Of a DNA stretch of 64,000 nucleotides, positions 6,321 to 40,188 are shown one piece after another (the stretch's first letter is position 1; every line of letters begins with the position of its first letter). The stretch is from assembly GCA_009392915.1 (NCBI GenBank), contig CP045477.1, forward strand, positions 160,001 through 224,000, in the 5' to 3' direction. The notes beneath the pieces were generated by a model that was given only the letters and a program-made list of their open reading frames with translations, was not told the DNA's origin and did not search any database. The translations under genes and the position numbers were made by a program. Source of the stretch: Candidatus Forterrea multitransposorum CG_2015-17_Forterrea_25_41. GTDB taxonomy: Archaea; Iainarchaeota; Iainarchaeia; Iainarchaeales; CSSED10-239.

Positions 6321-6326
6321 AATTTA

Positions 6327-6869: not shown

Positions 6870-7128
6870 GTATGTTTTTCACATTTAATCTATTATATAA
6901 ATATAATATAGAACAATAATGTTTATATATAGTTTGATACTATATATTTTATAGTAGAGAATATATTTGTTTTTAGATATAAGATGTTCTACAGTTTATT
7001 ATTAAATTATAAATTAAACATAAATTATTAAAAAGAAGAAAAGTACTTTTAAAAAAATAAAAGAACTTTTTTATAAAAAAACTTAAACAATTAAATTAAT
7101 CTTTTAAAAGTTATTTAAAATAAATAGT

Positions 7129-7362
7129 ATGACTAAAAATTTACAGTTAAAAGCAGGCGAAATTATTGAAGTTACTGTGGTATGTAATTCAAAGTTTCAA
7201 GAGATTCAGAAGTTATCAGAAATTTACAAAATAAGGCTTAAATCACAAGCTATTAAAGGAAAAGCCAATAAAGAGTTAAAGGAATATTTTAAGTCTTTAG
7301 GGTATTTAGTAGAAATAGTTAAAGGAGAAAGGTCAAACCATAAGTATATTAAAATTTTATAG
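7129..7362 (+). CDS. DUF167 (YggU/UPF0235) family small protein
   Basis: IRLKSQAIKGKANKELKEYFKSLGYLVEIVKGERSNHKYIKI matches the DUF167 pattern (KG.AN..L..FL...L......I..G..S..K.I.I). Confidence 0.55.
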   Translation: MTKNLQLKAGEIIEVTVVCNSKFQEIQKLSEIYKIRLKSQAIKGKANKELKEYFKSLGYLVEIVKGERSNHKYIKIL

Positions 7363-7515
7363 TTTGGTTTTTTATTTAAGTATTTCATAGTTTTTTTATA
7401 AAAAAATATTTGTTTTTTTAAAATCATTTGTTTTCTTTAAAAGATTTTTATTTCTTTTAACAAAAATCTTCTTTTTTTTAGTTTATAGAGAAAATACATT
7501 ACAGGTGATTTTAAA

Positions 7516-20098: not shown

Positions 20099-21391
20099 AT
20101 GTTTGGTCTTTTAAAAAAGAAATTCAAAGATTTGTCAGATAAAATATTAGGTAAATCTAAAGAAAAAATTGATTCTGAAGATCAAAGTCAAGAAGAAACT
20201 TCTTCTGATACTTCTAAGACTTTAGATGTTCCTGAAGAAAAATCTCCTGTTTCTAAAGAGCCAATATCTAATTCTGAAGAACTTTCTGTTCCTAAAGTTG
20301 AAGATGCTAAAGAAGAAATCCCTGTTCCTAAGGTTGAAGATGTTAAAGAAGAAAAATCTACTCCTAAGGTTGAAGATGTTAAAGAAGAAATCCCTATTCC
20401 TAAAGTTGAAGAAATTAAAGAAGAAAAACCTATTTTAAAAGAAGAAATAAAAGAAGATAAACAACCTTCAAAAGCATATACAGATTTAGAATCTAAAAAA
20501 GTTGAAGACGTAAAAAAAACAACTTTTACAAAAATAAAAAGTTTATTTTCATCAAAAATAAAATTATCTGAAAAAGAAATATCTGAATTTTTAGATGATT
20601 TTGAAATTTCTTTACTTGAAGCAGATGTTTCTATTGATTCTTCAACAGCAATTATTGAAGATTTAAAAAAAAGATTAGTTAATGCTTCTTTTTCAAAAAC
20701 AAATATCTTAGAAGATATTAAAAAAAATATTAAAGAAACTTTAAAAGAACAATTAAATATTGATTGTGATATTAATAATTATATTTCTCAAAAACAAAAT
20801 GAACCTTTAATAATTTTAATAATTGGACCTAATGGTGCTGGAAAAACAACAACTATTTCTAAATTTGCAAATCTTTATAAAAATCAAGGTAAATCTGTGG
20901 TTCTAGCTTCTTCAGATACTTTCAGAGCAGGAAGTATTGATCAATTAGAAGTGCATGCAAAGAGATTAGGTGTAAAAGTTGTAAAACAAAATTATGGTTC
21001 AGATCCTGCTGCAGTTGCTTTTGATGCAGTTGCTTCTGCTAAAGCAAATAAAAACGATGTTGTTTTAATTGATACTGCTGGTAGACAAGATACAAATATT
21101 AATCTAATGCAAGAACTCTCAAAAATAAAAAGAGTAGTAAAACCAGATCTTACAATTTATATTGGAGAATCTCAATCTGGACAAACAATTGTTGAACAAA
21201 TACAAAAGTTTGATAAAGAAATAGGTGTTACTGGAGTAATTTTAACAAAGATTGATACTGACCCAAAAGGTGGAGTTGCAATTTCTATTCTTAATGAAAT
21301 TAAAAAACCTATTTTCTATATTGGTACAGGTCAAGAGTATAATGATATAGAAAAATTTTCTCCAGAATATATTATTGAAAGAATTGTTTAG
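20099..21391 (+). CDS. ftsY: Signal recognition particle receptor FtsY
   Basis: N-terminal acidic A-domain with four VPKVEDVKEE(I/K)P repeats. The NG domain has GPNGAGKTTTISKFA, DTFRAGSIDQL and DTAGRQ motifs. Confidence 0.9.
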   Translation: MFGLLKKKFKDLSDKILGKSKEKIDSEDQSQEETSSDTSKTLDVPEEKSPVSKEPISNSEELSVPKVEDAKEEIPVPKVEDVKEEKSTPKVEDVKEEIPIPKVEEIKEEKPILKEEIKEDKQPSKAYTDLESKKVEDVKKTTFTKIKSLFSSKIKLSEKEISEFLDDFEISLLEADVSIDSSTAIIEDLKKRLVNASFSKTNILEDIKKNIKETLKEQLNIDCDINNYISQKQNEPLIILIIGPNGAGKTTTISKFANLYKNQGKSVVLASSDTFRAGSIDQLEVHAKRLGVKVVKQNYGSDPAAVAFDAVASAKANKNDVVLIDTAGRQDTNINLMQELSKIKRVVKPDLTIYIGESQSGQTIVEQIQKFDKEIGVTGVILTKIDTDPKGGVAISILNEIKKPIFYIGTGQEYNDIEKFSPEYIIERIV

Positions 21392-23619: not shown

Positions 23620-24483
23620 TTGTGTATTTTAATGATTGAAATAATTTTATTTATTAAACTTTTTATAATATTAATTGCCACAAGTATAGGTGCTTGGACA
23701 GACTATAAAACAGGGTATATCTATAACTGGATAACTTTTCCTTTAATTATCTTAGGTTTATTATTATTAATTTTAGAATCTTTTGTTTTATTTAATCTTG
23801 GTTGGTTTTATTTTTTAAAAGTGTTTATAATTGGTTTATTAATATATGGTATTGGTTATTTATTTTATTATTTTGGAAAATTAGGAGGAGGAGATGTAAA
23901 ATTATTTTTAGGAATTCATCTTTTAGTTCCTTATGTAAATGGTCAACTTTTAATTTTATGGGTTTTAATTTTATCTTCTCTATTATCTGTCTTAATTGTT
24001 TCAATTAAATATTTATTTATTCTTTTTAGAAAAATTACATTTACTGAATTTAAAAAAATTATAAAAACAAGAACCTCTAAAATGATTATTTATTTATTAA
24101 TGTTTATTTTTTTTGTTTTTCTCTTATATTCTGCAATCTATAATGTTGGTTTTTCAAAATATTATTACTTATTATTAATTCCTATATTTATAGGTCTTTT
24201 AACAGTTTTATTTGAAGAAGAAATTAAGAAATATATTTATCTTAAAAGAAAAGTTTTAAGGAAAATAGAAGAAGGAGATGTTTTAGCAATTGAGTTTTTA
24301 TCAAAAGAACTTCTTAATAAACTAAATATGGGAAATAGACAAGTTATTGAAGAAAAAGATTTATTGATTATTAAAAATTTAGATGTTAAATCTTTACCTA
24401 TATATGATAATCTTCCAAGATTTGGACCTTATATACTTTTAGGTTTTATTTTTTCTTTTTTATATTTATTTTTCTTATTTTAA
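23620..24483 (+). CDS. A24-family prepilin/preflagellin peptidase (PibD/FlaK-like), a polytopic membrane protein
   Basis: The first catalytic Asp is in IGAWTDYKTGYI and the second in YFGKLGGGDVKLFLG (GxGD-like). Multiple TM helices. It is the likely processor of the KRKA| and KG|A signal peptides in this window. Confidence 0.55.
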   Translation: MCILMIEIILFIKLFIILIATSIGAWTDYKTGYIYNWITFPLIILGLLLLILESFVLFNLGWFYFLKVFIIGLLIYGIGYLFYYFGKLGGGDVKLFLGIHLLVPYVNGQLLILWVLILSSLLSVLIVSIKYLFILFRKITFTEFKKIIKTRTSKMIIYLLMFIFFVFLLYSAIYNVGFSKYYYLLLIPIFIGLLTVLFEEEIKKYIYLKRKVLRKIEEGDVLAIEFLSKELLNKLNMGNRQVIEEKDLLIIKNLDVKSLPIYDNLPRFGPYILLGFIFSFLYLFFLF

Positions 24484-25711: not shown

Positions 25712-26821
25712 ATGAGTTTTACAATTACAAAAAAAGATAAAAAAACAAATGCAAGAATTGGTATTTTTAAAACTAATCATGGAACCATAAAGACTCCTTT
25801 TTTTATGCCAGTTGTAACTAAAGGAATTGCAAAGTTTATAACTTTAGATATTTTAGATGATATTAAAACACAATGTTTTATTTCAAATTGTTATTTATTA
25901 TACTTAAAACCAGGAAAAGAACTTTTAGAAAAAACAAAAGGTTATCATAATTTTATAAATTGGAAAAAACCTATTTTTACAGATTCTGGTGGGTTTCAAC
26001 TTAAAAATCCAAGTTTTTTTATATCAATGAATGATAAAGGAGTTTGGTTTAAATCTCCTTTTGATGGATCTAAACATTTTATGTCTCCTGAAAAAGTAAT
26101 TGAGATGCAGAATGTTATTGGTTCTGATATTGCAATGATATTAGATGATATGCAAGATGCTAATCTTTCAAGAGAAGCTTATGAAATTGCAACTGATAGA
26201 ACTATAGCTTGGGCAAAAAGAGCTATCCTTGCACATAAAAATAAGAAGCAAATGCTTTTTGGAATAGTTCAAGGTGGTGTATATAAGGATTTAAGAGAAA
26301 AATGTGCAAAAGAAATAAATAAACTTCCATTTGATGGTCTTGCAATTGGTGGACTTGCTTTAGGTGAGCCTAAAGAATCCATGCATAAAGCAATTGATTA
26401 TTCTTTAAAACATTTAGATGAAGAGAAAATAAAATATTTAATGGGTTTAGGATCTCCAGAAGACATTATTGTTTCAATTGGTAAAGGAGTTGATTGTTTT
26501 GATTCTATATATCCTACAAAAATGGCAAGACATGGTTTTATTTTTACAAGAAAAGGTCCTATTTTTTTAAAGAAAGCAAAATATAAAGATGTTTTTGAGC
26601 CTATTGAAAAAGATTGTGATTGCCCTACTTGTAAAAGGCATACACTTGCATACCTTCATCATCTTTTAAGACTTGATGAGCCAGGTGTTAAGATTCTTTT
26701 ATCTATTCATAATATTAGATTTTTACATAGGCTTTTAGAAGATTCTAGAAAAGAAATAGAAAAAGGAACTTTTGAGAGTTTTCAAAAGAAATTTTTAAAA
26801 GAATTTAAAAAAAGAGATTAA
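25712..26821 (+). CDS. tgtA: Archaeosine tRNA-guanine transglycosylase, catalytic domain
   Basis: TGT fold with a zinc site CDCPTCKRHTLAYLHHL. Motifs FMPV.TKG, FTDSGGFQL and LGSPEDI. Confidence 0.85.
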   Translation: MSFTITKKDKKTNARIGIFKTNHGTIKTPFFMPVVTKGIAKFITLDILDDIKTQCFISNCYLLYLKPGKELLEKTKGYHNFINWKKPIFTDSGGFQLKNPSFFISMNDKGVWFKSPFDGSKHFMSPEKVIEMQNVIGSDIAMILDDMQDANLSREAYEIATDRTIAWAKRAILAHKNKKQMLFGIVQGGVYKDLREKCAKEINKLPFDGLAIGGLALGEPKESMHKAIDYSLKHLDEEKIKYLMGLGSPEDIIVSIGKGVDCFDSIYPTKMARHGFIFTRKGPIFLKKAKYKDVFEPIEKDCDCPTCKRHTLAYLHHLLRLDEPGVKILLSIHNIRFLHRLLEDSRKEIEKGTFESFQKKFLKEFKKRD

Positions 26822-27325: not shown

Positions 27326-27994
27326 TTAAATAAGATTGTTTTCTTTAAATGAGAAATATTTTTGATTTGTAATTATTAAATGATCTAAAAAAGTTATCTC
27401 TAAAAGCTTGCAAGCTTCTTTTATTTTTGTCGTAGCTATTTTATCTTCTCTTGAAGGATAACATTCTCCTGAAGGGTGATTGTGTGCTATGATTATTGCT
27501 TGAGCATTTTCTTTTAAAGCTTCTTTTAATATTTCTTTTTCAGAAACTAAGGTTTGGTTATCTGTTCCAATAGTTATTATTTTTTTTGAAATAACTTCGT
27601 TTCCTTTTAGAAATAGTGTGATTAAATGTTCTTGTTCTTTATTTTCAATATCATGTCTTAATATTTCATATGCTGTTTTTGGAGAATAAATTTTTTCTGA
27701 AGTTTTTATATTTTTTATAGATATCCTTTTGTAAAGTTCTATGATTGCTTTTATTTGAGAGGCTTTTACAATACCAATACCTTTTATCTTAAGAAGTTGA
27801 TTAATTGATATATTTTCAAGATCTTGAAAGGTATATCTTGAAAGAATCTGGTTTGATATATCTAGAACATTATATTCTTTTGTTCCTGTCTTTAGAATGA
27901 TTGCTAGAAGTTCGCTATTTGATAGACTTTTTTCTCCATCTCTTGAAAGTCTTTCAAGAGGTCTGTTTTCTGGTGCTATATCTTTTAGTCTCAT
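27326..27994 (-). CDS. radC: RadC-like JAB/MPN-domain protein
   Basis: N-terminal helix-hairpin-helix region (KIKGIGIVKASQI) plus the JAMM motif IIIAHNHPSGECYPSREDKIATTKIKEAC. Confidence 0.8.
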   Translation of the reverse strand: MRLKDIAPENRPLERLSRDGEKSLSNSELLAIILKTGTKEYNVLDISNQILSRYTFQDLENISINQLLKIKGIGIVKASQIKAIIELYKRISIKNIKTSEKIYSPKTAYEILRHDIENKEQEHLITLFLKGNEVISKKIITIGTDNQTLVSEKEILKEALKENAQAIIIAHNHPSGECYPSREDKIATTKIKEACKLLEITFLDHLIITNQKYFSFKENNLI

Positions 27995-28140
27995 TTTATT
28001 TAAAAAAGAAAATAAATATTTCTCTCCACTAATAAATATACTTAATCCTTTATTTAAGGGAGGGGAAAAAAAGGTCTTTCCATAAAAGAAAGTACCTTTC
28101 TAATAGATGCATATTTCTAAATAATATATATCCTTTAACA

Positions 28141-28190
28141 AATATATCTCTTTTCAAGCAGGGGGTAGCTGGCCGAGTAAATTAATTTAG
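28141..28190. repeat. GC-rich 50-nt direct repeat, copy R1 (aatatatctcttttcaagcagggggtagctggccgagtaaattaatttag), upstream of the radC-like gene when read on the minus strand
   Basis: 50/50 identical to R2 at 28856-28905. The first 30 nt are identical in R3 at 29943-29972. The GC-rich core is anomalous in this AT-rich genome. Confidence 0.8.
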
Positions 28191-28513
28191 TATTTAAATC
28201 TCTTTTCATAACTTTTATGATTAAACCATTCTATAATAATAGATATAATTTTAATTTGATCACTTTTAATTGTGTATACTAATCTCCATCCATTAAATAG
28301 ATTATATTTCCAAAGGTTTGTAATTTTATATTTTTTAATATATTCTTTTGGCCATAATTTTTTTGAAATTTTAATTCCAGAAGTAGGATCTTTTTTAAGA
28401 GTTTCAATTGCTTTTAGAATATTTTTATACAAATCATGATTTTCTTTAAGGTTTTCAAAATTAATTTCTAATTCTCTTGAAACAAATACAACATAATTTT
28501 CTTTATCAATCAT
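28187..28513 (-). CDS. relE: RelE/ParE-superfamily toxin (type II toxin-antitoxin system)
   Basis: 108 aa. ...LWPKEYIKKYKITNLWKYNLFNGWRLVYTIKSDQIKIISIIIEWFNHKSYEKRF follows the RelE/YafQ pattern (W.Y.L...WRLVY.I......I....H). Overlaps the upstream antitoxin ORF by 4 nt. Confidence 0.65.
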   Translation of the reverse strand: MIDKENYVVFVSRELEINFENLKENHDLYKNILKAIETLKKDPTSGIKISKKLWPKEYIKKYKITNLWKYNLFNGWRLVYTIKSDQIKIISIIIEWFNHKSYEKRFKY

Positions 28514-28779
28514 CTTAATTTAACACCTAAAGATAATATTTTTGAAATATTTTTTTTATCATATATCCAAATTACAATATTATCTTTATCAATAATAATC
28601 TTACTAGATTCTTCTAGATATTCAAGAATTATTTTGTATGTCTGATACATCATTTTTTTAGGTATTTTTTTCCATAATTGATAGATAGTATACTGAGAAC
28701 TATATTTTTTAATAGTATTTTCAACCATTAAGATACTCTCAAGCTTTGGACTATGATATTTTATTTTTTCTTTAGGCAT
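28510..28779 (-). CDS. Putative antitoxin partner of the RelE-family toxin. Start taken at MPKEKIKYHS.
   Basis: An 89-aa ORF immediately upstream of, and overlapping, the toxin gene. The ORF-track start at 28872 would run through repeat R2 and is probably too long. Confidence 0.4.
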   Translation of the reverse strand: MPKEKIKYHSPKLESILMVENTIKKYSSQYTIYQLWKKIPKKMMYQTYKIILEYLEESSKIIIDKDNIVIWIYDKKNISKILSLGVKLR

Positions 28780-28855
28780 ATTATATAACTTTATATAAGT
28801 TAAATTTTTAAATATTTTTATTTGCCTAAAGTATATATTAATATGTGTTTTAAAA

Positions 28856-28905
28856 AATATATCTCTTTTCAAGCAGGGGGTAGCTGGCCGAGTAAATTAA
28901 TTTAG
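28856..28905. repeat. GC-rich 50-nt direct repeat, copy R2, upstream of the antitoxin-toxin operon
   Basis: Identical to R1. Confidence 0.8.
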
Positions 28906-29904
28906 AACTTTTTTTAATTCTTTTTCATTTGGTAAAAATGTACTTAATTTTTTAGGAATTTTAGATAATTTGTATTCTGCTATTCCTAATGGATATTTAT
29001 TATTTAATAAAGAATATTCTACTATTGTCTTATTCTTAGATTTACATATTAATAATCCAATAGTTTCTTTATCTTCTTTTCTTTTCATATCTTTATTTAT
29101 TACATTAATATAAAACCCTATTTGGCCAAGATATTCTGGTTTGAATTCAGTAATTTTTAATTCAATTACTATAAATCTTTTTAAAATATAATTATAAAAT
29201 AATAAATCTATATAAAAATCTTTATTTCCAACATTAATTTTAAATTGTTTTCCAATAAATGCAAATCCTTTTCCTAATTCTATTAAAAATTTAGATATAT
29301 TTGAAACAATAGATTCTTCTAATTCTTTTTCATTAAATTCTTCTTTTAAATGTAAAAAATCTAATATATAATTTTCTTTAAAATAATTTAAAATAAATTT
29401 TGAATCTTTTTTTGGAAGTGTGTTTAAAAAATTAATGTTTATGTTTTTTTTTCTTGCATATAAATTTAATTCTATTTGATGTTCTAATAATACTTTAGAC
29501 CATAAATTATTAATTGATTCTTGAATATAGAAAAGTGCTTCTTCTTTATTTTTAATTTTATCTAGAATTAATCTTATTTGATTCCAAGGTAATTGTGCCA
29601 CAACTTGTGGCACATTTTCTGTTTTAAAAAATAAATAGAATTTTCTCATATAAAATAAATTTCTTCTCGAAAAACCTTTTACATTAGGGAATTCTTTTCT
29701 TAAATCTTTTTCTATTTGCCCAATTAAATTTATTCCCCAATTACTTTCTTTTTGTTTAAAATAAATTTCTTTTCCAAGAGTGTAATAAAGATTAATTAAT
29801 TCTGAATTTACTTTTAATATTGCATTTTGTCTTGATTTAATAATGTTTTCTTTAATTTTAGAAATAAATTCTATATATTCTTTATTAAATATATTTTTTT
29901 CCAT
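28897..29904 (-). CDS. YhcG-like DUF1016 protein with a C-terminal PD-(D/E)XK nuclease domain
   Basis: The N-terminal region resembles DUF1016 (KENIIKSRQNAILKVNSELINLYYTLGKEI). The C-terminal DLLFYNYILKRFIVIELKITEFKPEYLGQIGFYIN carries the D...E.K restriction-endonuclease-like motif. Confidence 0.65.
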   Translation of the reverse strand: MEKNIFNKEYIEFISKIKENIIKSRQNAILKVNSELINLYYTLGKEIYFKQKESNWGINLIGQIEKDLRKEFPNVKGFSRRNLFYMRKFYLFFKTENVPQVVAQLPWNQIRLILDKIKNKEEALFYIQESINNLWSKVLLEHQIELNLYARKKNININFLNTLPKKDSKFILNYFKENYILDFLHLKEEFNEKELEESIVSNISKFLIELGKGFAFIGKQFKINVGNKDFYIDLLFYNYILKRFIVIELKITEFKPEYLGQIGFYINVINKDMKRKEDKETIGLLICKSKNKTIVEYSLLNNKYPLGIAEYKLSKIPKKLSTFLPNEKELKKVLN

Positions 29905-29942
29905 ATCTTATCTATTCTAGATATATTTTATATTTTTACAAA

Positions 29943-29982
29943 AATATATCTCTTTTCAAGCAGGGGGTAGCTAGCTGAGTAA
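29943..29982. repeat. GC-rich direct repeat, copy R3 (the first 30 nt identical, then agctgag in place of ggccgag), upstream of the yhcG-like gene
   Basis: aatatatctcttttcaagcagggggtagct is identical, followed by a variant tail agctgagtaaa. Confidence 0.75.
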
Positions 29983-30083
29983 AAAAGATTAAATTTTAAT
30001 TTCTATAGCCAATAACCTACATTAACATTATAAACTCTTTCTCTCTTAAATATATTATTAAATATAAAAAATAAGATTATATT

Positions 30084-31298
30084 ATGAGATATTCACATTC
30101 TTCCATGGAGACTTTTAGAAATTGTCCTCTTCAATTTAAATATAAGTATATTGAAAAAGTAGATATACCTATTAAAAATAATATAGAAGCATTCATGGGT
30201 TCAATGGTCCATAATACTTTAGAAAAATTATATACAGATCTAAAATATAATAAATTATTATCTTTAGATGAAGTATTAGATTATTACAATAAATCTTGGA
30301 CAGATAATTTTTCATTTGATAAAGTAGAAATTATAAGAGAAGGTTATACTGAAGAAAACTACAAGTCTTTAGGTCAAGATTACCTAAAAAATTATTATAA
30401 TACTTATAAACCTTTCAATCAAGGAAAAACTATTGGCCTTGAAATGCAAGTAAATATTTCTTTATATGATAAAGAAAGACAAAAAACTTATGATCTTATA
30501 GGTTATATTGATAGACTTTCTTTAGTTTCAGATAATCATATAGAAATTATAGATTATAAAACAAATAATTCTGCAAAAACTCAACAAGAGGTAGATGTTG
30601 ATAAACAACTTGCTCTTTATTCTATAGCAATTAAAGAAAAATTTCCTTTTGTTGAAAAAATAGATCTTTGTTGGTTTTTTTTGTCAGCTGGTATAAAACA
30701 AGTTTCAACAAGAACTGTAGATGATTTAGAAAAATTAAAACAAGAAACAATAGAAATTATAAGGGAGATCGAAGATTCTAAGCAAAAAAATAATTTTCCA
30801 GGTAAACCTTCTGCTCTTTGTGATTGGTGTGCTTTTAGGTCAATTTGTCCTTTTAAAGCACACGATGTTATTACTAAAAATCTTTCAGAAAATGAATATT
30901 TAAAAGAAGAGGGTGTTTTCTTAGTTGATAAGTATCAAGAATTTACTGAAAAAAAGAAAGCTTTACTTGATGAAATTGATCCAGAGATTGAAAAGGTAAA
31001 AGAAGCAATAATTAATTATTCTAAAAAGAATAATTTAGAAAAGCTTTTTGGAAAAGAAAAATCTTTAATTGTAAAAGAATATTCTTCTTTTAAAATACCT
31101 GAAAAAAAATCAAAAGAAAGAGAAGAACTTGAAGCTCTTTTAAAGGAAAATAATTTTTGGCCTTTTGTTTCTGATCTTTCATATATAGAAATTTCAAATC
31201 TTATAAAAAATGGTTTTTTTGAAAGTTCTTTTAAAGAAAAACTTTTAAAATATTTAAAAGAAGAAAAAATAAATAGACTTTATTTAAATAAAAAATAA
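30084..31298 (+). CDS. PD-(D/E)XK-family nuclease with a C-terminal Cys cluster (Cas4/RecB-like nuclease fold), with no CRISPR nearby
   Basis: Catalytic block GYIDRLSLVSDNHIEIIDYKTN (D...E.K). The cysteine cluster CDWCAFRSICPF plus an N-terminal CPLQF suggests a 4Fe-4S-binding Cas4-like domain. Confidence 0.6.
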   Translation: MRYSHSSMETFRNCPLQFKYKYIEKVDIPIKNNIEAFMGSMVHNTLEKLYTDLKYNKLLSLDEVLDYYNKSWTDNFSFDKVEIIREGYTEENYKSLGQDYLKNYYNTYKPFNQGKTIGLEMQVNISLYDKERQKTYDLIGYIDRLSLVSDNHIEIIDYKTNNSAKTQQEVDVDKQLALYSIAIKEKFPFVEKIDLCWFFLSAGIKQVSTRTVDDLEKLKQETIEIIREIEDSKQKNNFPGKPSALCDWCAFRSICPFKAHDVITKNLSENEYLKEEGVFLVDKYQEFTEKKKALLDEIDPEIEKVKEAIINYSKKNNLEKLFGKEKSLIVKEYSSFKIPEKKSKEREELEALLKENNFWPFVSDLSYIEISNLIKNGFFESSFKEKLLKYLKEEKINRLYLNKK

Positions 31299-31300
31299 TT

Positions 31301-31564
31301 TTATTTATTTCTCATAAAAAACTCTAAAACTTCTTGTTTAGTTTTACCTGTTTTTTCTGCAACTTCTTTAATAATAATTTCTACAAATTTAGAAGATACT
31401 ACTTTATTTCCTTTTTTTAAAATTATTTCTCTACCATGACTATCTCTAAAAACAATATGTCTATGGTTTCCTTTTTCCTTTTCAAAACCAAGTTTATTGT
31501 ATATTCTTTCAAGTTGTTCTGGTCTTAATGTTGAAGGTTTTTTTCCATTAAAAGGTTTTGCCAT
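31301..31564 (-). CDS. hicA: HicA-like (YcfA family) mRNA-interferase toxin, with no recognisable HicB partner
   Basis: LERIYNKLGFEKEKGNHRHIVFRDSHGREIILKKGNKVVSSKFVEIIIKEVAEKTG follows the HicA pattern (l.k.Gf....kGSH..f.hp.g....vP.h...l..g.l.sIlkqag). Confidence 0.5.
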   Translation of the reverse strand: MAKPFNGKKPSTLRPEQLERIYNKLGFEKEKGNHRHIVFRDSHGREIILKKGNKVVSSKFVEIIIKEVAEKTGKTKQEVLEFFMRNK

Positions 31565-31578
31565 TTTTAATCTTTCCT

Positions 31579-32142
31579 TTATTTAAAATCCATATTTATT
31601 TTAATTTCTTCTAAAACAGCAGTAATAAATTCATTTAAGGGTATATTTAGTTTAGTTTCACATAATCTTATTTCTTCTCTTGAAACAGCTGCTGCAAATG
31701 TTTTGTCTTTAAATTTTTTAATAATAGATTTTGTTTCTGCATTTTTAATTTCTTTATCTGGTCTCATTAAAACATATGCTCTAATAATTCCAGTTAAGCC
31801 ATCTACAGAAAAGAGAGCATTTTCTACAGTTTCTTTTCTTTCTATTTTCAAAGCATCGTTATGTGATTTAATAATATCTATTATCTCTTGAGAGATTCCT
31901 TCTTCTTGTAATATTTTTTCTCCAACTAAACAATGCACATTAATATCTCCATTATATTTTTCAATATCAATGTCATGGAGTGCACCAATCAAAAACCATT
32001 CTTCTTGTTTTTCTTCTGGTAATTTAAGATATTTAGAAACTCCTTTCATTCCATAACCTACCATTAAACAATGTTCAAGGTTTGCTTTTTCTTTAATATG
32101 TTTGTTTAATATTTCTATAGTTTTTTCTTTTGTATTGTTCAT
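31579..32142 (-). CDS. HD-domain phosphohydrolase
   Basis: His...HD...D motif (LMVGYGMKG...FLIGALHDIDIEKYNGD). 187 aa, lying 15 nt upstream of the hicA-like gene. Confidence 0.55.
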   Translation of the reverse strand: MNNTKEKTIEILNKHIKEKANLEHCLMVGYGMKGVSKYLKLPEEKQEEWFLIGALHDIDIEKYNGDINVHCLVGEKILQEEGISQEIIDIIKSHNDALKIERKETVENALFSVDGLTGIIRAYVLMRPDKEIKNAETKSIIKKFKDKTFAAAVSREEIRLCETKLNIPLNEFITAVLEEIKINMDFK

Positions 32143-32154
32143 ATTTTAAAACCT

Positions 32155-35100
32155 TTAATTTTGATATTTATATCTTACAATAACAATTCCAGAACCACCA
32201 TTTCCACCATTTGCTGATGAATTTGTTGCTGATCCGTTTCCACCATTTCCTGTGTTTGCAGCAGCAGAAGATGCATCTGAGTGAGCATCACCACCTTTAG
32301 CATAAGTGTTTCCCCAAATGGTCATACCAGGACCTCCATTAGGTACTGTTCCAGGTCCTCCCGCTCCTCCTCCTCCACCAGCTCCAACATTAACAACAGA
32401 GGTTGCACCAGGATATCCAAATCCTGTATTAGGATACCCATCATTTGTACTTGGTTGTGTTGCACTTCCACCATTTGCAGGCACTGCACTATAAAGGTTT
32501 GCACCTCCACCTGAACCACCTGATGTACCATCTCTGGAAGGATTATCTCTTGATCCTCCACCACCACCACCATATGCAATTAAATTTTTAAATACAGAAT
32601 TATTTCCATTATTTCCTGTAAAGTCTTGATTTGTAGAACCTGTTCCTCCTGCTCCTACAGTAACAGTAATATTTCCAGTACTTGAAAGTGTGTAGTCTTC
32701 AACATATACAAGACCTCCAGCACCTCCTCCTCCAGGATTTCTTAAAGTATTTGTTCCTGCTTTTCCAGCACCTCCACCACCACCAACAACTAAAACATCT
32801 ACTTTTCCCTCTCCTAATGTTGTTACATTAAATGTTCCACTTGATGTAAAAGTATGATATTTATAGTCTCCAGAAGTTGTAACTGTTCCTCCTGTTGCTT
32901 CTAAATATCCTTGATTTATTGTTAAGTTTATAGATGCTCCTGCTGTTTGATATTGATCATTTACTATTAAAGTTATCTTATGTTCTCCTGATGATAGATT
33001 AGTTGTTGAAAAGTTACAAGTTGAACTTAAAGTTCCATCTATATTTGAATCCCAATAACATGAATGGCTTCCAGATGGATTTGTAATTGTTGAATTAAAA
33101 GTTAGGTTTTCGCCATAATTATGTGTTGATGAGTTTGAGGGAGTATCAATTGTAACTGATATTGGATTAGGTATGCTACGCATAAATATCCAAGATATAC
33201 CTACAATTCCAATTTCTTCAACTCTTAATAAAGGAATTGTACCATCGGGATCAAATGAAGAAATACTGACTGATGTAAAATCTCCACTTGTTCCTGTTAC
33301 AACTGTTGAATTATTAATTATTAAATTTCCTGAATTTGAAGAATAAGATGCAGCAGTAGATCCTAATCCATAATAGACTCTTAATTGGTTTATGTCACTA
33401 GGTCCATTCCATGTATTCATTGTAAGTAATCCATTATCTGCAGGTCCACTATAGAAAAATGATAAAAATTCAGGTCTTCTTGTATAACTTGCAAAATTAA
33501 CATTTACTCCATCATTATAATGTGTATAATAATCTAGATTATAACCATATGTAGATAGATCTGTAGTTAATATACGGTTACCATTCCATGCAGGATAAGA
33601 TGAGTCATAAGTATTATCTGTTGAAAATGAAGAATACAACATCCAACCTCCTCCATTATCTTCCATATTACAATAAATTTGAGTTGGAACTCCGTCTTTT
33701 AATATCCAATAAACTCCGTTTGTAGCACTTGGATTGTTATTTTTAATATACATTGCAGAAGGTGCTGCTTTTTCTGAAGAACTTCCATCTAAATCTATAA
33801 TTGTTATTGAAATATTTTTATCTATAGTTTGTTCTTGATCAGTAACAGATAATGTTATTGTATGTTCTCCAACTGTTAAACTACTTGTTGAAAAATCACA
33901 ATTACTTGATAAACTTCCATCTATAGATGATACCCAAGAACAACTATAACTTCCGTTTTCATTTTCTATTTGAGAATTAAAATCAATTGCTTCTCCAAAA
34001 CTGAATGTTTGTAAGTTTGTAGGAGAATTAATATTTATTGTAAGTTCTTCAACATATTCATTTTTAGTATTATCATAAATTGCTTTAATTTCATTTAAAT
34101 TTAAACTTCTGCCATATAGTCTATAGTCTGAAATCATTCCTTTAAAATATCTTGTATTTGTAGAATTTATTCCAAATTTAACTCCTCCACCTTGTGTTTC
34201 ATAACTATAAATTTCTTCTAATGTTTTTTCTAAGTTTCCATTAATATAACCTTTTAAAGTTTTTAATGTTTCATCATATGTAACTGTATAATTAATCCAT
34301 TTATTTTCTTCAACAGGATCTGAAAGCTCATAAGTTGAATATCCTCCATCTAAATCTCTCCATCTTATTTCCATTTTTTTATCAACAGGATTAATACTAA
34401 CTCTAAGATTATTTTTTTGAGACCAAAAGAAACTTTCATGTTCTAAACTTTGATTTTCTGTATAATATATCCATCCATTTATTGTAAATGAACTATAATC
34501 ACCTACATTTGAAACATTAATATAATCATTAGCTCCATCTAAATTTAATTTAGAACTACTATTCCAATTTGCAGTTCCAACAATACTTCCATTATTAGAA
34601 TTTCCTGAATAATCGTATACTGTGCTTCCTTCTCCTTCATCTATTTTCCAATATCCAATTATTTGATAATCAATACAGTCAAGTACATTATAGTTATTTG
34701 TTTTAATAGGTTTTACAATTTCTCTCCCTTTATCTGTATTTAATTTTAATATATAATTTTCTTCAGGAGCACATACAACATCTATTTCTTTAGTTTCTTT
34801 TTTTTCAATAGTTATTGGTTCTTCAAAAAATATATTTTTATTTAAATATTCTGTATCAACAGCATCTGATGCAATAAAATAACTAGTTAATACTAAATCT
34901 TGATTAATATTGTTGTTTGAAAGTACAATACTTTGATTTACAACTTCTTCAATTAAGATTTCATCTCCAATTCTTTGTATCTCAATTATAGGAATATTAT
35001 TATTTTTATCCACAACACTAAATCTTAATTCTTCAAGTCCAGGCATAATATCAATGTAGTTATAAAAAAGAATATTATTATTATAATCAATATTATAAAG

Positions 35101-35463
35101 TAGACTTGTTTCTTGTCTATTAATTATAAGTGATCCTATTTGGCTTTGTGTTTTTAGATTTTCAATACTTCTTTTATTTTTAATTTCTTGTCTTAAATAA
35201 AGATTACTTGAGTTATTATCAACTGTAATTGGGTCACTTAAATCTAAATAAACTTCTTTATAGCTTCCAACTTCTGAATCTTTTAAATCTGTTAAAATAT
35301 CATTAATATATGCTAAGTTATCTCTGTTGTTTTTCATTCTTTGTGAATCTTCTAGAGTTCCAAAATAATTCATTGCAAAATAAATAAATATACCTAAAAA
35401 TATAATACTTACAAAAAGAATTGCTATTCCTGAAAATAAAGATGTTACTCCTTTTTGATTCAT
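32155..35463 (-). CDS. Giant pilin-signal adhesin (1102 aa) with a class III signal peptide, LamG/ConA-like domain, PKD-like domains, a fibrinogen-related domain and a Gly-rich C-terminal beta-rich domain
   Basis: Signal MNQKG|VTSLFSGIAILFVSIIFLGIFIYFA. LamG_3 region IGYWKIDEGEGSTVYDYSGNSNNGSIVG...TINGWIYY. PKD-like repeats ending GEHTITLSVTDQEQT / GEHKITLIVNDQYQT. Fibrinogen motif GVYWILKDGVPTQIYCNMEDNGGGWMLY. C-terminal VDVLVVGGGGGAG...GGGGAGG...GSGIVIVRYKY. Confidence 0.7.
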   Translation of the reverse strand: MNQKGVTSLFSGIAILFVSIIFLGIFIYFAMNYFGTLEDSQRMKNNRDNLAYINDILTDLKDSEVGSYKEVYLDLSDPITVDNNSSNLYLRQEIKNKRSIENLKTQSQIGSLIINRQETSLLYNIDYNNNILFYNYIDIMPGLEELRFSVVDKNNNIPIIEIQRIGDEILIEEVVNQSIVLSNNNINQDLVLTSYFIASDAVDTEYLNKNIFFEEPITIEKKETKEIDVVCAPEENYILKLNTDKGREIVKPIKTNNYNVLDCIDYQIIGYWKIDEGEGSTVYDYSGNSNNGSIVGTANWNSSSKLNLDGANDYINVSNVGDYSSFTINGWIYYTENQSLEHESFFWSQKNNLRVSINPVDKKMEIRWRDLDGGYSTYELSDPVEENKWINYTVTYDETLKTLKGYINGNLEKTLEEIYSYETQGGGVKFGINSTNTRYFKGMISDYRLYGRSLNLNEIKAIYDNTKNEYVEELTININSPTNLQTFSFGEAIDFNSQIENENGSYSCSWVSSIDGSLSSNCDFSTSSLTVGEHTITLSVTDQEQTIDKNISITIIDLDGSSSEKAAPSAMYIKNNNPSATNGVYWILKDGVPTQIYCNMEDNGGGWMLYSSFSTDNTYDSSYPAWNGNRILTTDLSTYGYNLDYYTHYNDGVNVNFASYTRRPEFLSFFYSGPADNGLLTMNTWNGPSDINQLRVYYGLGSTAASYSSNSGNLIINNSTVVTGTSGDFTSVSISSFDPDGTIPLLRVEEIGIVGISWIFMRSIPNPISVTIDTPSNSSTHNYGENLTFNSTITNPSGSHSCYWDSNIDGTLSSTCNFSTTNLSSGEHKITLIVNDQYQTAGASINLTINQGYLEATGGTVTTSGDYKYHTFTSSGTFNVTTLGEGKVDVLVVGGGGGAGKAGTNTLRNPGGGGAGGLVYVEDYTLSSTGNITVTVGAGGTGSTNQDFTGNNGNNSVFKNLIAYGGGGGGSRDNPSRDGTSGGSGGGANLYSAVPANGGSATQPSTNDGYPNTGFGYPGATSVVNVGAGGGGGAGGPGTVPNGGPGMTIWGNTYAKGGDAHSDASSAAANTGNGGNGSATNSSANGGNGGSGIVIVRYKYQN

Positions 35464-35993
35464 TATTCTTCACTTTTATTAAAATCTAATAATTCTATTT
35501 CTATAATTATTTTATTTTCATCAAGATTATAATCTTGATAACTAAAAACATAATTTGTTTGTCCTTGATTTAAATTAATTAAATTACAATCTATGTTTAT
35601 TTGGGAATTATTGTTTATTGTTTTTTTAAAATAGGCTCTATTTGATTCTTTACTAACTTCAATATCTTTTATTGTAACTAATTGATCATCTCTAATCTCT
35701 GAGTTAAAGATTATTTCTCCTCTGATTTCATTTTGATTACAATCAATCTCTAAGACTTCTGGATTATATATTGTAATTTCTTTTGCTGAAAATCTAGATT
35801 TTGAAATTTCTTGAAAAGTATTTGAAATTAAATCTATGTTTTCAATCATTTGATCAAAATTATATTTTTCTTGATTTTTTTCAATAGTATCTTGCACCAT
35901 ATAAAGTATGCTTGAAAGAATGGCTATACTTACAAATATATATAGAAAGTATGAAAATAAATTTGCTGCTCCTTTTTCTTTTCTTAAAAACAT
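35463..35993 (-). CDS. Small pilin-like protein (176 aa) with a class III signal peptide, a candidate minor pilin of the adhesin operon
   Basis: MFLRKEKG|AANLFSYFLYIFVSIAILSSILYMV. Its TAA shares one base with the downstream ATG (TAATG) and it lies 12 nt downstream of the 802-aa gene. Confidence 0.55.
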   Translation of the reverse strand: MFLRKEKGAANLFSYFLYIFVSIAILSSILYMVQDTIEKNQEKYNFDQMIENIDLISNTFQEISKSRFSAKEITIYNPEVLEIDCNQNEIRGEIIFNSEIRDDQLVTIKDIEVSKESNRAYFKKTINNNSQINIDCNLINLNQGQTNYVFSYQDYNLDENKIIIEIELLDFNKSEE

Positions 35994-36005
35994 ATTTTAA
36001 AACCT

Positions 36006-38414
36006 TTATTCTATATTTAAATTTAAATTTTCAGTAATAGTTTGTTCTTGATCTGTCACTGATAATGTTATTGTGTGTTCTCCAACAGACAATGTTGAAA
36101 TATTAATATCACAATTATCTAAAGAATATTGATTATTATATAGTTTTGAAACATCTTCTTGATCTATTGCTTCATCAAAAATTAAAATATCATCCATTTT
36201 ACCATTAAAAAAATGATCATAAGTTCCAACAACTCCATTATAAGCTATAGCAGCACCAATTGCAACTGGCAAGCTATTTGATATTGATCCATAAGTTCCA
36301 ATAGGAACACTAGCATCAAGAATTCCATTAATATAAAAATTTAAATCTTGGTTGTCTTTATAAGACATAATAACATTATACCAATTATTTTGAGCATATA
36401 GAGAACCACAATTACTACAACTTTTATAGTTACTTTGAGCATCATCAATACCAGAATAAATATCCCAATTACTAGAAACATTATTAATCATTAATTGCCA
36501 ACCTGCATAACTTCCTCCGGCACCTCTTCCTCTAGTATTAATTATTCTTTGATATCCAGAACCAGTAGGATTTATCCATGTTGATACAGTAATTTCATCT
36601 AAATTTGAACTAATATTATTATCTAAAGTTGCATAGCTTGAAGTTCCATTAAAACTTAATGCATTATTTTCTCTTCCAAATCTGTCTGTTGTTCTAGTTA
36701 CATTAAATAAAGTTCCGTCAATATTCCCTATATTATCATAAATAGTATCTCCTGTAGTTTCTTCAAATCTATATTCTGCATATGGTTTTTGATATGTTAA
36801 ATTTCCATCAATTGATGATGCCCAAGAACAAGAATAATTTCCTACATTATTTGTAATATTTGTATCTATTTCTATATTATCTCCTAAAGTATATACATTT
36901 GAATCAATATTTATTTCTGCATTTAAAGATGGATTTTCTACAGTTATATTTTTTGTTTCAGTAATAGTTTGTTCTTGATCGGTCACTGATAAAGTTATGG
37001 TGTGTTCTCCAACAGACAATGTTGAAATATTAATATCACAATTATTTGAAGAATATTGATTATTATATAGTTTTGAAACATCAGAACTAGAAATTCCATT
37101 ATTAAAAATAATAATATCATCTAACTTTCCATTAAAAAAATGATTAAAAGTTCCATACACTCCATTATATGCAACTGATGTCCCAATTGCTGTTGGTAAG
37201 CTGTTTGTTATATTTCCATATGGATCTAAATTTACACTTTCATCTAATTGTCCATCAACATAAAAATTAAGATTATTATCTTCATCAAAAGACATAACAA
37301 AATGATACCATTTTCCAAGTGTCAAACTATTTCCACAAGTGTTACAACCAGTAAATGGACTTGTTGAAGAATCAACTCCTGAATAAAGATAAAAATTACT
37401 AGTTGTATCATTAATTAATATTTGCCATCCTTCAACATCTGAAGCTGCAGATCCTCTTGTGTTTATAATTCTCTGATATGTACTAGATCCATTTGATAAA
37501 AACCATCCTGATATTGCAAATCTATTAAGTTCTTGACTTATATTATTATCTAATAAAACATAGCTTGAAGTTCCATTAAAGCTTAAAGCCTTATTTTCTC
37601 TTCCAAATCTATCTGTAGTTCTTGTAATGTTATATCCATTACCATCAATATTACCTATTAAATCATAAATTATATTTCCTGAAGTTTCATTAAAATCCCA
37701 TCTTGCATAAGGTGTTTTACTTGGTATTAAGTTTCCATCAATTGATGATGCCCAAGAACAAGAATAACTTCCAACAGGGTTATTTACTTCTGATGTGAAA
37801 TTAATTGGTTCTGAAAATAAGAAAGAAGTTGCTTCTATTGGATTTGAAATATCTATAGTTGTCACAGTTTCTATTGGATTTAGATTTGGTCTTTCTTTTT
37901 GAAGATTTAATTTTTCAGAAGAATCAATTTCTCTTAAAAAACTTATTTTGTTTCTACTTATTTTTTTAATATAAATAATTGTTTTTGTGTTATTAAGATA
38001 TATTCCTTGTTCTATATCTATTCCATTGATGTCTAAACCAACAATTAATTTTTCAAATTCTCTAAAAGTATAAATTTCTCCTTCTCTAATTAATTGTCCT
38101 TCTTTATAATAATTTCCAGAAATATTATGAAATATTTCTATTTTATCTAAATTAGAATCTGCTTCAAAACTTAAACCATCAAGGTCTATTACAAAAGAGA
38201 CAACAGATCCATTTGAATTTTCTAAAACTTCTTGTATTTTTCCTTGAATTTCTTCAATATACATTCTAGATTCTTCAAATTTTTGTTGTGAATTATTTCT
38301 TTCAATTGCAGGAACAACTCCTTGATAAATAAGTCCTACAACAGCAACAATAATAAATATAACTAAGATATAACTTAAAATTTCAGAAGCTCCTCTCTGA
38401 TTTAGTCTTTTCAT
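36006..38414 (-). CDS. Giant pilin-signal adhesin (802 aa) with a class III signal peptide and two tandem [PKD-like + LamG/ConA-like lectin] units
   Basis: Signal MKRLNQRG|ASEILSYILVIFIIVAVVGLIY. Two copies of ...SYSCSWASSIDGNL...YARWDF.ETSG..IYD.IGNIDG.....TRTTDRFGREN.ALSFNGTSSY (LamG_3 signature). Each ends with the PKD-like GEHTITLSVTDQEQTIT. Confidence 0.7.
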   Translation of the reverse strand: MKRLNQRGASEILSYILVIFIIVAVVGLIYQGVVPAIERNNSQQKFEESRMYIEEIQGKIQEVLENSNGSVVSFVIDLDGLSFEADSNLDKIEIFHNISGNYYKEGQLIREGEIYTFREFEKLIVGLDINGIDIEQGIYLNNTKTIIYIKKISRNKISFLREIDSSEKLNLQKERPNLNPIETVTTIDISNPIEATSFLFSEPINFTSEVNNPVGSYSCSWASSIDGNLIPSKTPYARWDFNETSGNIIYDLIGNIDGNGYNITRTTDRFGRENKALSFNGTSSYVLLDNNISQELNRFAISGWFLSNGSSTYQRIINTRGSAASDVEGWQILINDTTSNFYLYSGVDSSTSPFTGCNTCGNSLTLGKWYHFVMSFDEDNNLNFYVDGQLDESVNLDPYGNITNSLPTAIGTSVAYNGVYGTFNHFFNGKLDDIIIFNNGISSSDVSKLYNNQYSSNNCDINISTLSVGEHTITLSVTDQEQTITETKNITVENPSLNAEINIDSNVYTLGDNIEIDTNITNNVGNYSCSWASSIDGNLTYQKPYAEYRFEETTGDTIYDNIGNIDGTLFNVTRTTDRFGRENNALSFNGTSSYATLDNNISSNLDEITVSTWINPTGSGYQRIINTRGRGAGGSYAGWQLMINNVSSNWDIYSGIDDAQSNYKSCSNCGSLYAQNNWYNVIMSYKDNQDLNFYINGILDASVPIGTYGSISNSLPVAIGAAIAYNGVVGTYDHFFNGKMDDILIFDEAIDQEDVSKLYNNQYSLDNCDINISTLSVGEHTITLSVTDQEQTITENLNLNIE

Positions 38415-38739: not shown

Positions 38740-40188
38740 ATGCACGAAGATCTTTTTAACACCCTAAACCCACATCAAAAAGCATATATTAATTTTGAAA
38801 TTCCAAATGTTAAAAATGGAGAATATATGTTATGTGCTTTCCATTTAAGACCTGGAGGAGATTTAAATATCTTACAAGCAGCTTGTGAAACAGCAGCTGA
38901 ATCTTCAACTGGTACAAATTTTTTAGTAAACACAGAAACTCCTTTTGCAAGAGAGATGAATGCTTTAGTTTATAAATTAGATTTAGAAAAAAGTTTAGTA
39001 TGGATAGCATATCCTTGGAGACTTTTTGATAGAGGAGGAAATGTTCAAAATATCTTAACATACATTGTAGGAAATGTTTTAGGTATGAAAGAAGTTTCTG
39101 CAATTAAACTTTTAGATGTTTGGTTTCCACCAGCTATGCTTGAACAATACGATGGACCTTCCTATACTTTAGATGATATGAGAAAATATTTAGATGTTTA
39201 TGATAGACCAATTTTAGGAACAATTATAAAACCAAAAATGGGTTTAACTTCAGCAGAATATGCAGAAGCATGCTATGATTTCTGGGTTGGTGGAGGAGAT
39301 TTTGTTAAAAATGATGAACCTCAAGCAAACCAAGATTTCTGTCCATATGATAAAATGGTAAAACATGTAAAAGAAGCTATGGATAAAGCTGTAAAAGAAA
39401 CTGGTCATAAAAAAGTACATTCTTTCAATGTTTCAGCTGCAGATTATGATACAATGATTGAAAGATGTGAAATGATTGTTAATGCAGGTTTTGAAAAAGG
39501 ATCTTATGCATTTTTAATAGATGGAACTACTGCAGGTTGGATGGCAGTTCAAACTTTAAGACGTAAATATCCTGATGTTTTCCTTCATTTCCATAGAGCA
39601 GGACATGGAGCATATACAAGACCTGAAAATCCAATTGGTTTTTCTGTTTTAGTATTATCTAAATTTGCAAGACTTGCAGGAGCTTCTGGTATTCATACAG
39701 GAACTGCAGGTGTAGGAAAAATGGCAGGTACTCCAACAGAAGATATTACAGCTGCAACTGGTATTTTAAAATTAGTCTCAGAAGGACATATTTTCCATCA
39801 ATCATGGTCAACTGTTCCTGAAAAAGATTTAGATGTTGTAAAGCTTGCACAAGAGGATGAAGCTCATCATGTTATCTTAGAAGATGATAGTTGGAGAGGT
39901 CTTAAAAAATGTACTCCAATAATCTCTGGTGGTCTAAATCCAACTCTTCTTAAACCATTTATTGATTTAATGGGTGGAGTTGATTTTATAACAACTATGG
40001 GTGCTGGTTGTCATGCTCATCCAAAAGGTACACAAGCAGGCGCTAAGGCTTTAGTTCAAGCATGTGAAGCATACCAGAAAGGAATTTCTATTGAAGAATA
40101 TTCAAAAGATAGACCTGAGCTTGCAGAAGCTATTGAGTTTTTTACAAAGAAAAAGCATGTTGATAACTTAAAGAAGGAGTTTTCTTAA
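38740..40188 (+). CDS. rbcL: Ribulose-1,5-bisphosphate carboxylase, form III (archaeal nucleotide-salvage type), large subunit
   Basis: YINFEIPNVKNGEYMLCAFHLRPGGD...TGTNF, the catalytic Lys region GGGDFVKNDEPQANQ, and the loop-6 and C-terminal GGLNPTL..GGVDFITTMGAGCHAHPKG. Confidence 0.9.
   Translation: MHEDLFNTLNPHQKAYINFEIPNVKNGEYMLCAFHLRPGGDLNILQAACETAAESSTGTNFLVNTETPFAREMNALVYKLDLEKSLVWIAYPWRLFDRGGNVQNILTYIVGNVLGMKEVSAIKLLDVWFPPAMLEQYDGPSYTLDDMRKYLDVYDRPILGTIIKPKMGLTSAEYAEACYDFWVGGGDFVKNDEPQANQDFCPYDKMVKHVKEAMDKAVKETGHKKVHSFNVSAADYDTMIERCEMIVNAGFEKGSYAFLIDGTTAGWMAVQTLRRKYPDVFLHFHRAGHGAYTRPENPIGFSVLVLSKFARLAGASGIHTGTAGVGKMAGTPTEDITAATGILKLVSEGHIFHQSWSTVPEKDLDVVKLAQEDEAHHVILEDDSWRGLKKCTPIISGGLNPTLLKPFIDLMGGVDFITTMGAGCHAHPKGTQAGAKALVQACEAYQKGISIEEYSKDRPELAEAIEFFTKKKHVDNLKKEFS

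Follow-up and report, generated by a model that had tools for sequence, protein, structure and literature searches.

The described systems closest to the locus considered here are the YefM-YoeB and Axe-Txe toxin-antitoxin (TA) pairs, which are antitoxin-first bicistrons with a 4-nt overlap, a toxin of about 100 amino acids (aa) and a variable presence among strains, and the integrons, including clusters of attC sites lacking an integrase (CALINs), in which short single-function cassettes are separated by a recurring, hairpin-forming site that also contains the ends of their open reading frames (ORFs). Integron cassettes are typically promoterless. Archaeal integrons, reported from lineages including the DPANN archaea, are mostly CALINs, with TA and restriction genes as the commonest annotated cargo (PMC9668308), and the YoeB/Txe toxins were stated to be absent from archaea in a recent survey (PMC11980606). 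The locus compared with these systems lies in a 64-kb window (the whole stretch of DNA that was analysed) of the chromosome of the DPANN archaeon Candidatus Forterrea multitransposorum (contig CP045477.1), in which the original prediction, made from the sequence alone, had proposed a compact defence and TA island at 27326–32142 (4.8 kb). It is read here, with a probability of about 0.6, as a mosaic, namely a small variable hot spot between conserved genes, in which three direct repeats (R1–R3) bracket two cassettes, one with a YhcG nuclease gene and one with a TA pair of a new family in the RelE superfamily, that would be gained and lost by recombination between the R copies. The accessory DNA amounts to about 1.9 kb (28126–29997) and consists of these two mini-cassettes. 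The architecture, which is documented at one locus only, is unusual and cassette-like, and the hot spot is of an ordinary kind.

The repeats, which were absent from the original prediction, are about 55–80 nt each and bracket exactly two units, YhcG (1087 bp) and the TA pair (715 bp). A repeat search returned one three-copy family with spacings of 715 and 1087 bp, and the 24-nt core GCAGGGGGTAGCTGGCCGAGTAAA occurs three times in the 64 kb and not once in 100 shuffles. In an alignment, the copies share a module of about 80 nt, TTTACTC-GGCCAGCTACCCCCTGC-TTGAAAAGAGATATAT-...-TATAT..TTTAG, one copy of which is also present in the relative L002. R is made up of a GC-rich core, a GAAAAGAGATATAT motif resembling a B recognition element (BRE) with a TATA box, and a short conserved downstream stretch. 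R1 and R2 share 57 identical bases, R3 has two mismatches in the core, and R3 is the oldest copy. The YhcG and toxin ORFs both stop inside R, in different frames and with a shared CTAAATTAATTTAC tail, and each copy of R lies 5' of the next gene or transcription unit on the same strand; the GAAAAGAGATATAT part may represent an archaeal promoter of the BRE/TATA type. A scan for bacterial sigma-70 promoters and intrinsic terminators gave the same counts as shuffled sequences, these bacterial models being uninformative for an archaeon.

The two units are set apart by comparison with other strains and relatives. Contigs of other samples (L009–L013) have the identical arrangement at about 99% nucleotide identity, while two contigs from another project (L007 and L008) carry YhcG, one R and RadC and are without exactly the 715-bp antitoxin-toxin unit. 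When aligned with the window, L008 falls into two blocks that overlap by the 57-nt repeat. The YhcG region of L008 is diverged by 2.9%, against about 1.1% in the other strains, which argues that L008 is a distinct strain. In a more distant relative (L002/L003), whose proteins are 72–77% identical, the locus contains the Cas4-like gene, a single diverged R and an orphan antitoxin homologue, and both the toxin and YhcG are absent from it. This single R is flanked on the left by sequence homologous to that left of R3, and on the right by sequence homologous to that right of R2. In another relative (L005), the position is occupied by a small unrelated gene, and YhcG is absent from L002, L003 and L005. 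On account of these comparisons, YhcG and the TA pair are regarded as accessory units delimited by R. HD, the Cas4-like gene, RadC and the solitary HicA-fold gene are conserved in the lineage, the last in close relatives only. The proposed island therefore holds for YhcG and the TA pair, which vary between strains and relatives, and does not extend to the HD, Cas4-like, HicA-like and RadC genes. In terms of synteny, HD is a housekeeping gene shared with distant relatives, the Cas4-like and HicA-like genes are syntenic at the genus level, and neither description applies to YhcG or the TA pair. Since four of the seven genes are conserved in the lineage, adjacency alone over-calls islands.

Outside this locus, R was not recovered. 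In exact-pattern scans of metagenome and GTDB genome contigs it was found only here, with one 332-kb contig carrying just these three copies; the same scan gave no matches in viral contigs, and a fuzzy search allowing up to 8 substitutions across all fetched loci recovered it from this species only. Such locus-specific occurrence in the metagenome, GTDB, viral and fuzzy scans ruled out R as a dispersed repeat or miniature inverted-repeat transposable element.

If the cassettes move as proposed, the R copies would undergo either homologous recombination or recombination by an enzyme whose gene lies elsewhere, and R would provide the promoter for the unit downstream. By homology, the toxin would cleave mRNA in a ribosome-dependent manner and be neutralised by the antitoxin through its C-terminal helix, and the winged helix of the antitoxin may repress the R promoter and thereby establish autorepression at R. 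YhcG would act as a DNA nuclease, possibly in defence, and the HicA-like protein would bind or cleave RNA, being either domesticated or under control in trans.

Several points weigh against the proposed gain and loss of cassettes. Mobility is an indirect conclusion, as no recombinase in the window, no circular cassette and no second R locus were found. The junction lacking the TA pair is known from metagenome assemblies, in which a loop of 715 bp can be passed over by an assembler at an exact repeat of 57 nt, and NN stands exactly at the repeat in contig L007. All of the toxin and HicA assignments fall under curated family thresholds, and the HicA-like model reaches a predicted local distance difference test (pLDDT) score of merely 67. 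R could also be a duplicated promoter/operator without a role in recombination.

This last point is developed in the main rival explanation, in which R is a promoter/operator only, perhaps the binding site of the winged-helix protein, that was copied before three neighbouring units, the strain difference is a homologous deletion or an assembly artefact, and nothing is mobile. The BRE/TATA-like GAAAAGAGATATAT in R and the position of every copy 5' of a same-strand gene would be expected under this explanation, as would the restriction of R to this locus while TA homologues elsewhere are without it, and the NN at the repeat of L007. However, it leaves unexplained that two unrelated ORFs end in R in different frames with a common CTAAATTAATTTAC tail, and that YhcG lies between two R copies when L002 has one copy and no YhcG; R is moreover kept in the strain without the winged-helix gene. 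It is considered unlikely. Another explanation sees the repeats as traces of integration. Archaeal integrases use att identities of about 40–100 bp, and R copies could be attL/attR remnants of integrase insertions into a tRNA-like target, the cassettes being what is left of larger, decayed elements. Class II tRNAs, among them the tRNA-Leu of the window (GCAGGGGTTCCCGAGT), have 5' ends to which the plus-strand R core GCAGGGGGTAGCTGGCCGAG bears a loose resemblance, and in L029 a tRNA-Leu(CAG) precedes the TA homologue by 170 nt. Against these resemblances, no tRNA or Rfam family was detected at R by ARAGORN, at the Rfam gathering thresholds or in a permissive scan (E ≤ 10) of 28000–30100, no integrase or integrase fragment is present in or beside the cassettes, R was not found in viral contigs, and the cassettes measure just 715 and 1087 bp and contain no decayed ORFs, which makes the explanation decidedly improbable.

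The array might also be viewed as a CALIN, an integron-type attC cluster without an integrase, given that single-function cassettes are separated by a repeat in which their ORFs end. This view is scarcely credible, and R was rejected as an attC site on its defining feature: folding of all three copies on both strands gave no hairpin (minimum free energies of −0.9 to −6 kcal/mol; z −1.2 to +1.7 against shuffles, even the best copy being equalled by 27 of 200 shuffles), conserved R''/R' boxes (RYYYAAC/GTTRRRY) were not found across the R copies, the window contains no intI, and the copies are direct repeats instead of imperfect palindromes. The locus thus resembles integrons and CALINs in its short single-function cassettes (a TA pair and a nuclease), its recurring site, the ORFs that end in this site and the lack of an adjacent integrase, but differs from them in that R is not a hairpin-forming attC and carries a promoter-like motif, and in that there are two cassettes at one locus only. 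A more far-reaching proposal, which is itself rather improbable, is that R serves as the recombination site of an integron-like, hairpin-less cassette-capture system of DPANN archaea, with promoter-bearing direct repeats, a recombinase encoded elsewhere and single-function cassettes passing in and out at one hot spot; each R would then end the upstream ORF and drive the downstream one. The whole 4.8 kb as one horizontally acquired defence/TA island, with HD and HicA as a toxin module and YhcG and the Cas4-like protein as a defence system, is very improbable and already largely refuted. In its favour, the genes lie side by side and belong to suitable classes, every close relative has HD and the HicA-like gene as same-strand neighbours, and TA modules lie downstream of HD in other lineages. 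On the other hand, distant HD orthologues (56–64% identity) are without a HicA-like neighbour, the Cas4-like gene persists without YhcG in L002, L003 and L005, a tRNA synthetase gene splits the HicA-like and Cas4-like genes in L002, RadC scores over its equivalog cutoff and is present in every strain, and the GC content of the stretch matches that of the window.

The genomes of DPANN archaea are very small, and few defence systems have, to our knowledge, been recognised in them, which gives value to separating their truly accessory genes from the rest. The R-bracketed architecture offers a concrete case of how small cargo may enter and leave such small genomes when no mobile-element gene lies nearby. 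Should R be a real recombination site, it would represent a cassette platform of a new kind; at present, the locus is of modest specialist interest.

All seven ORFs of the original prediction are present at the coordinates it gave, and its domain calls were essentially right according to the ORF list and the profile matches (Table 1). The GC content is about 24% throughout the window, and that of the 4.8-kb stretch matches the remaining window. Almost the whole window is covered by annotations of archaeal housekeeping genes, including Hjc, Rpr2, S19e, L31e, eIF-6, prefoldin, SRP54/FtsY, L44e and form III RuBisCO. No integrase, cas gene or HicB was found among the annotated genes of the 64-kb window and no CRISPR array in the window; a recombinase domain, including IntI, was likewise not found among these genes, the search being confined to the window.

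Table 1. Coordinates of the genes and direct repeats at the hot spot and its conserved flanks, numbered from the first nucleotide of the window.
Feature	Coordinates	Strand	Remarks
RadC	27326..27994	-	Full-length, with UPF0758 N-terminal domain, helix-hairpin-helix (HhH) and JAB domain; HNHPSG motif; a conserved gene that flanks the cassette array and is not part of its cargo
Direct repeat R1	28126..28195	-	Includes the toxin stop codon; RadC lies about 130 nt downstream
Toxin, 108 aa	28187..28513	-	Divergent member of the RelE/ParE/YoeB superfamily (BECR fold), as predicted
Antitoxin candidate, 89 aa	28510..28779	-	Predicted winged helix and C-terminal helix; 4-nt ATGA overlap with the toxin
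Direct repeat R2	28841..28910	-	Includes the YhcG stop codon; contributes a BRE/TATA-like motif ahead of the antitoxin gene
YhcG/DUF1016 PD-(D/E)XK nuclease	28897..29904	-	PADLOC candidate PDC-S02; single-gene cassette
Direct repeat R3	29928..29997	-	Upstream of YhcG; 2 core mismatches
Stand-alone Cas4-like/RecB-family PD-(D/E)XK exonuclease	30084..31298	+	4-Cys cluster; C-terminal extension of about 140 aa; conserved in the lineage
Solitary divergent HicA-fold protein, 87 aa	31301..31564	-	G-N-H motif kept; no HicB partner
HD/HDIG phosphohydrolase	31579..32142	-	Core archaeal gene, outside any TA module

The toxin of the TA cassette had been assigned to the RelE family together with an overlapping antitoxin, an assignment that was borne out at the level of the superfamily. 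On its own, the protein stays below the curated thresholds of Pfam, scoring 22 bits for YoeB_toxin (gathering threshold 27) and 18.4 bits for ParE_toxin (23), and with 21 bits it falls short of the cutoff of 51.8 for TIGR02116. A single-sequence search of the PDB matched Staphylococcus aureus YoeB (7v6w) with an E-value of 1.4e-3 over query residues 5–98. The toxin family comprises 561 clusters at 50% identity, and among 45 members, ParE_toxin was matched by 20 (best E-value 1.5e-7) and YoeB_toxin by nine. When the family profile was compared with the PDB, 10 of the 14 chains at E ≤ 1, including the top six, were toxins of the YoeB, RelE and RelK families (best E-value 3e-4), one of the ten being deposited under the name RelB; the alignment of the profile with the YoeB chains extends over about 8–97. 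Membership of the putative toxin in the RelE/ParE/YoeB superfamily is thus supported by its family profile. In the alignment of the 45 sequences, G45, P54, R76, Y79, H98 and Y101 are invariant or nearly so, and R76, located in a WRLVY strand, is aligned with the Arg of the YoeB sequences RVVY and RLIY. These residues fit the Arg and the C-terminal His and Tyr of YoeB-type RNases.

The antitoxin candidate precedes the toxin, and the 4-nt ATGA overlap between the two genes was confirmed. Its start is most plausibly the ATG at 28779 (89 aa), which is also the start called by JGI, and the longer version from a TTG at 28872 is probably too long. Sequence relatives of the antitoxin were not found in Pfam or the PDB, and a PDB profile search gave nothing meaningful. 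The AlphaFold model (pLDDT 83) has a topology of three helices, a beta-hairpin and a further helix, and the fold matches with a probability of at least 0.9 are all winged-helix DNA-binding domains, mostly of transcription regulators, together with FtsK gamma and Rpa2.

Two further DPANN genomes (L028 and L029) contain homologues of the pair, overlapping by the same 4 nt, amid unrelated neighbours, and the fuzzy search found no R beside them. The toxin family was recovered solely from DPANN-labelled genomes and unlabelled metagenome contigs, and searches of four profile libraries gave either sub-threshold matches or none for the TA family. Compared with YefM-YoeB and Axe-Txe, the pair has the same antitoxin-first bicistronic order and 4-nt overlap, a toxin of about 100 aa that aligns along most of its length and keeps the conserved Arg and the C-terminal His/Tyr, and a variable presence among strains. 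It differs from YefM-YoeB in that the toxin is under both Pfam gathering thresholds and in that the antitoxin is a predicted winged helix of no described family, instead of a Phd/YefM or ribbon-helix-helix protein. As judged from these sequence comparisons, the pair is best seen as a putative archaeal branch of the RelE/ParE superfamily that is both new and divergent and that comes with a new type of antitoxin. In L029, which is a Nanoarchaeota-labelled metagenome-assembled genome, the pair is located at 3001–3596, and the tRNA-Leu(CAG) upstream of it at 2746–2829.

The other cassette encodes a YhcG/DUF1016 nuclease, as had been predicted, with matches to PF06250 (E-value 4.6e-55; DUF1016_N 135.6 bits, cutoff 32.8) and PF17761 (1.6e-39; YhcG_C listed at 186.2 bits against a cutoff of 32.5) and, over its full length, to PADLOC PDC-S02 (2.9e-124, 412.9 bits). 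The YhcG assignment is unambiguous, and a role of the family in defence is a candidate annotation. In the literature, YhcG/DUF1016 and PDC-S02 were found to be mentioned in surveys, and no mechanism was found for them. Homologues with about 45% identity are located on 518 bacterial plasmids. As in bacteria, the gene appears as a single mobile gene with both Pfam domains, but the copy in the window differs in that it forms a single-gene cassette between repeats on the chromosome of an archaeon. In L013, the GTDB representative genome, a 1-nt deletion (approximately 6285–6343) in an A9 run (A8) splits the YhcG ORF into two frames, which could be due to pseudogenization, phase variation or a sequencing error. 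Inside YhcG, at 29594–29614 on the plus (antisense) strand, there is a 9-bp GC-containing hairpin, TGTGCCACAACTTGTGGCACA, followed by a T-run, with weak, sub-threshold Rfam matches to small RNAs.

The Cas4-like protein (404 aa) was also correctly recognised as a nuclease with a Cys cluster and without CRISPR or cas genes nearby in the window. It matches PDDEXK_1 (4.2e-34, 119 bits) and the exonuclease phrog_69 (6.4e-33), and its translation contains the motifs IDRL, EIIDYK and QLALY (D...DxK, QxxxY) together with C14 and C266-x2-C269-x5-C275. The nuclease motifs and the C...CxxCx5C cluster are shared with Cas4/RecB-family (AddB-like) Fe-S exonucleases and the phage exonucleases of PHROG 69. 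It differs from Cas4 in lacking a CRISPR-cas context, in its score of 29.8 bits against a cutoff of 65 for the cas4 equivalog TIGR00372, and in a C-terminal extension of about 140 aa that is helical. The gene is syntenic in L002, L003 and L005 at 72–84% identity. It had been suggested that the two nucleases form a defence pair; this is not sustained as an obligate association, since the Cas4-like gene is kept in relatives without YhcG. The same observation, together with the occurrence of YhcG homologues on plasmids, argues that the two nucleases have independent histories.

The idea of a two-gene module formed by HD and the HicA-like gene did not hold either, and the gap between the two genes, which are on the same strand, measures 14 nt and not 15. 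The HD protein matches PF01966 (8.1e-7) and the HDIG family TIGR00277 (30.4 bits, cutoff 27.6), with no match in a sequence search of the PDB. Its 76 homologues include proteins of Methanococcus maripaludis (56% identity) and Methanococcus sp. (59%), and HD is, as these homologues suggest, a core archaeal gene. No HicA-like neighbour was found beside the HD orthologues (56–64% identity) in four contexts at greater distance, from Methanococcus, Diapherotrites-labelled and other archaea, and in Methanococcus the gene adjoins an OLA1/YchF-type GTPase gene. In other archaeal lineages, the region downstream of HD holds a 192-aa gene with AbiEii and Fic (L019/L020, 3556–5726) or UPF0175 with DUF3368 (L022, 3571–4447). 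Because other lineages carry different modules of the TA or abortive-infection type there, the position downstream of HD is regarded as a recurrent landing site.

The HicA-like gene adjoins HD only in relatives at 70–84% identity, in which its own identity to the window copy is 72–83% and matches that of the neighbouring genes. Being conserved beside a core gene at the rate of its neighbours, it has the appearance of a resident gene rather than of an addiction module. The gene was named YcfA/HicA-like by JGI. Its sequence matches are weak (Pfam HicA 0.045 and 14.3 bits, below the gathering threshold of 27; phrog_353 toxin 5.5e-4), and a sequence search of the PDB gave a spurious match to a designed repeat only. 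The model (pLDDT 67) has an alpha-beta-beta-beta-alpha-alpha topology, and the top four Foldseek matches in the PDB are all HicA structures (1whz, 5yrz_B, 6g26 and 4c26; probability 0.80–1.00, TMt 0.52–0.72). G32-N33-H34 is kept, and H34 and H36 are invariant in seven homologues. No partner ORF of at least 20 aa, HicB or other, was found beside the gene, whose neighbours are HD and the convergent Cas4-like gene. The original call of a solitary HicA-like toxin without HicB is thus upheld as far as fold and context are concerned: on its predicted structure, it is a real, divergent and solitary HicA-fold protein, which probably acts as an RNase or by binding RNA, with any control that it needs encoded elsewhere. 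The similarity to HicAB lies in the predicted fold and in the retained His of the catalytic G-x-H type, while the lack of HicB, the extra N-terminal tail and C-terminal helix and the replacement of the P-x-H motif are differences. In the window, the HicA-like and Cas4-like genes converge directly; in L002 they are separated by a gene for an Asp/Asn-tRNA synthetase (6700–8103), a further rearrangement at the hot spot.

On the other side of the cassettes, RadC had been counted as a member of the island. It is an ordinary full-length RadC (PF04002 1.2e-39; PF20582, UPF0758_N, 6.4e-23; equivalog-level score of 233.8 bits for NF000642, cutoff 180) and is 99.5% identical in all strains, including the one without the TA pair. 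The flanking gene at 25712–26821 (+) had been taken for tgtA as the boundary of the island. With 401 bits for TIGR00430 (cutoff 306.75) and 167 bits for archaeal TgtA (cutoff 350), it is a bacterial-type tgt, for queuine/preQ1 tRNA-guanine(34) transglycosylase, and not archaeosine TgtA. The presence of a bacterial-type tgt in an archaeon suggests cross-domain transfer.

Other genes of the window deserve brief mention. The proteins of the "adhesin operon" beyond HD (32155–38414, minus strand) and at 23620–24483 (plus strand) have short charged N-termini followed by a hydrophobic helix (KG-A/V...), as in archaeal class III (pilin-type) signal peptides, and contain LamG, PKD-like, fibrinogen-like GGGW and glycine-rich domains; a gene for an A24 prepilin peptidase lies 8 kb away. 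Form III RuBisCO is usual in DPANN archaea, and the large-subunit gene at 38740–40188 (+), which has the RuBisCO_large_N and RuBisCO_large domains and adjoins tRNA-His, is probably of this form. An 840-aa ORF at 52402–54924 (−) combines an intein splicing domain with a LAGLIDADG homing endonuclease. At 20289–20474 (+), the FtsY/SRP-receptor-like gene contains, in its N-terminal region, a 36-nt coding tandem repeat of 4–5 copies that is rich in Lys, Glu and Pro.

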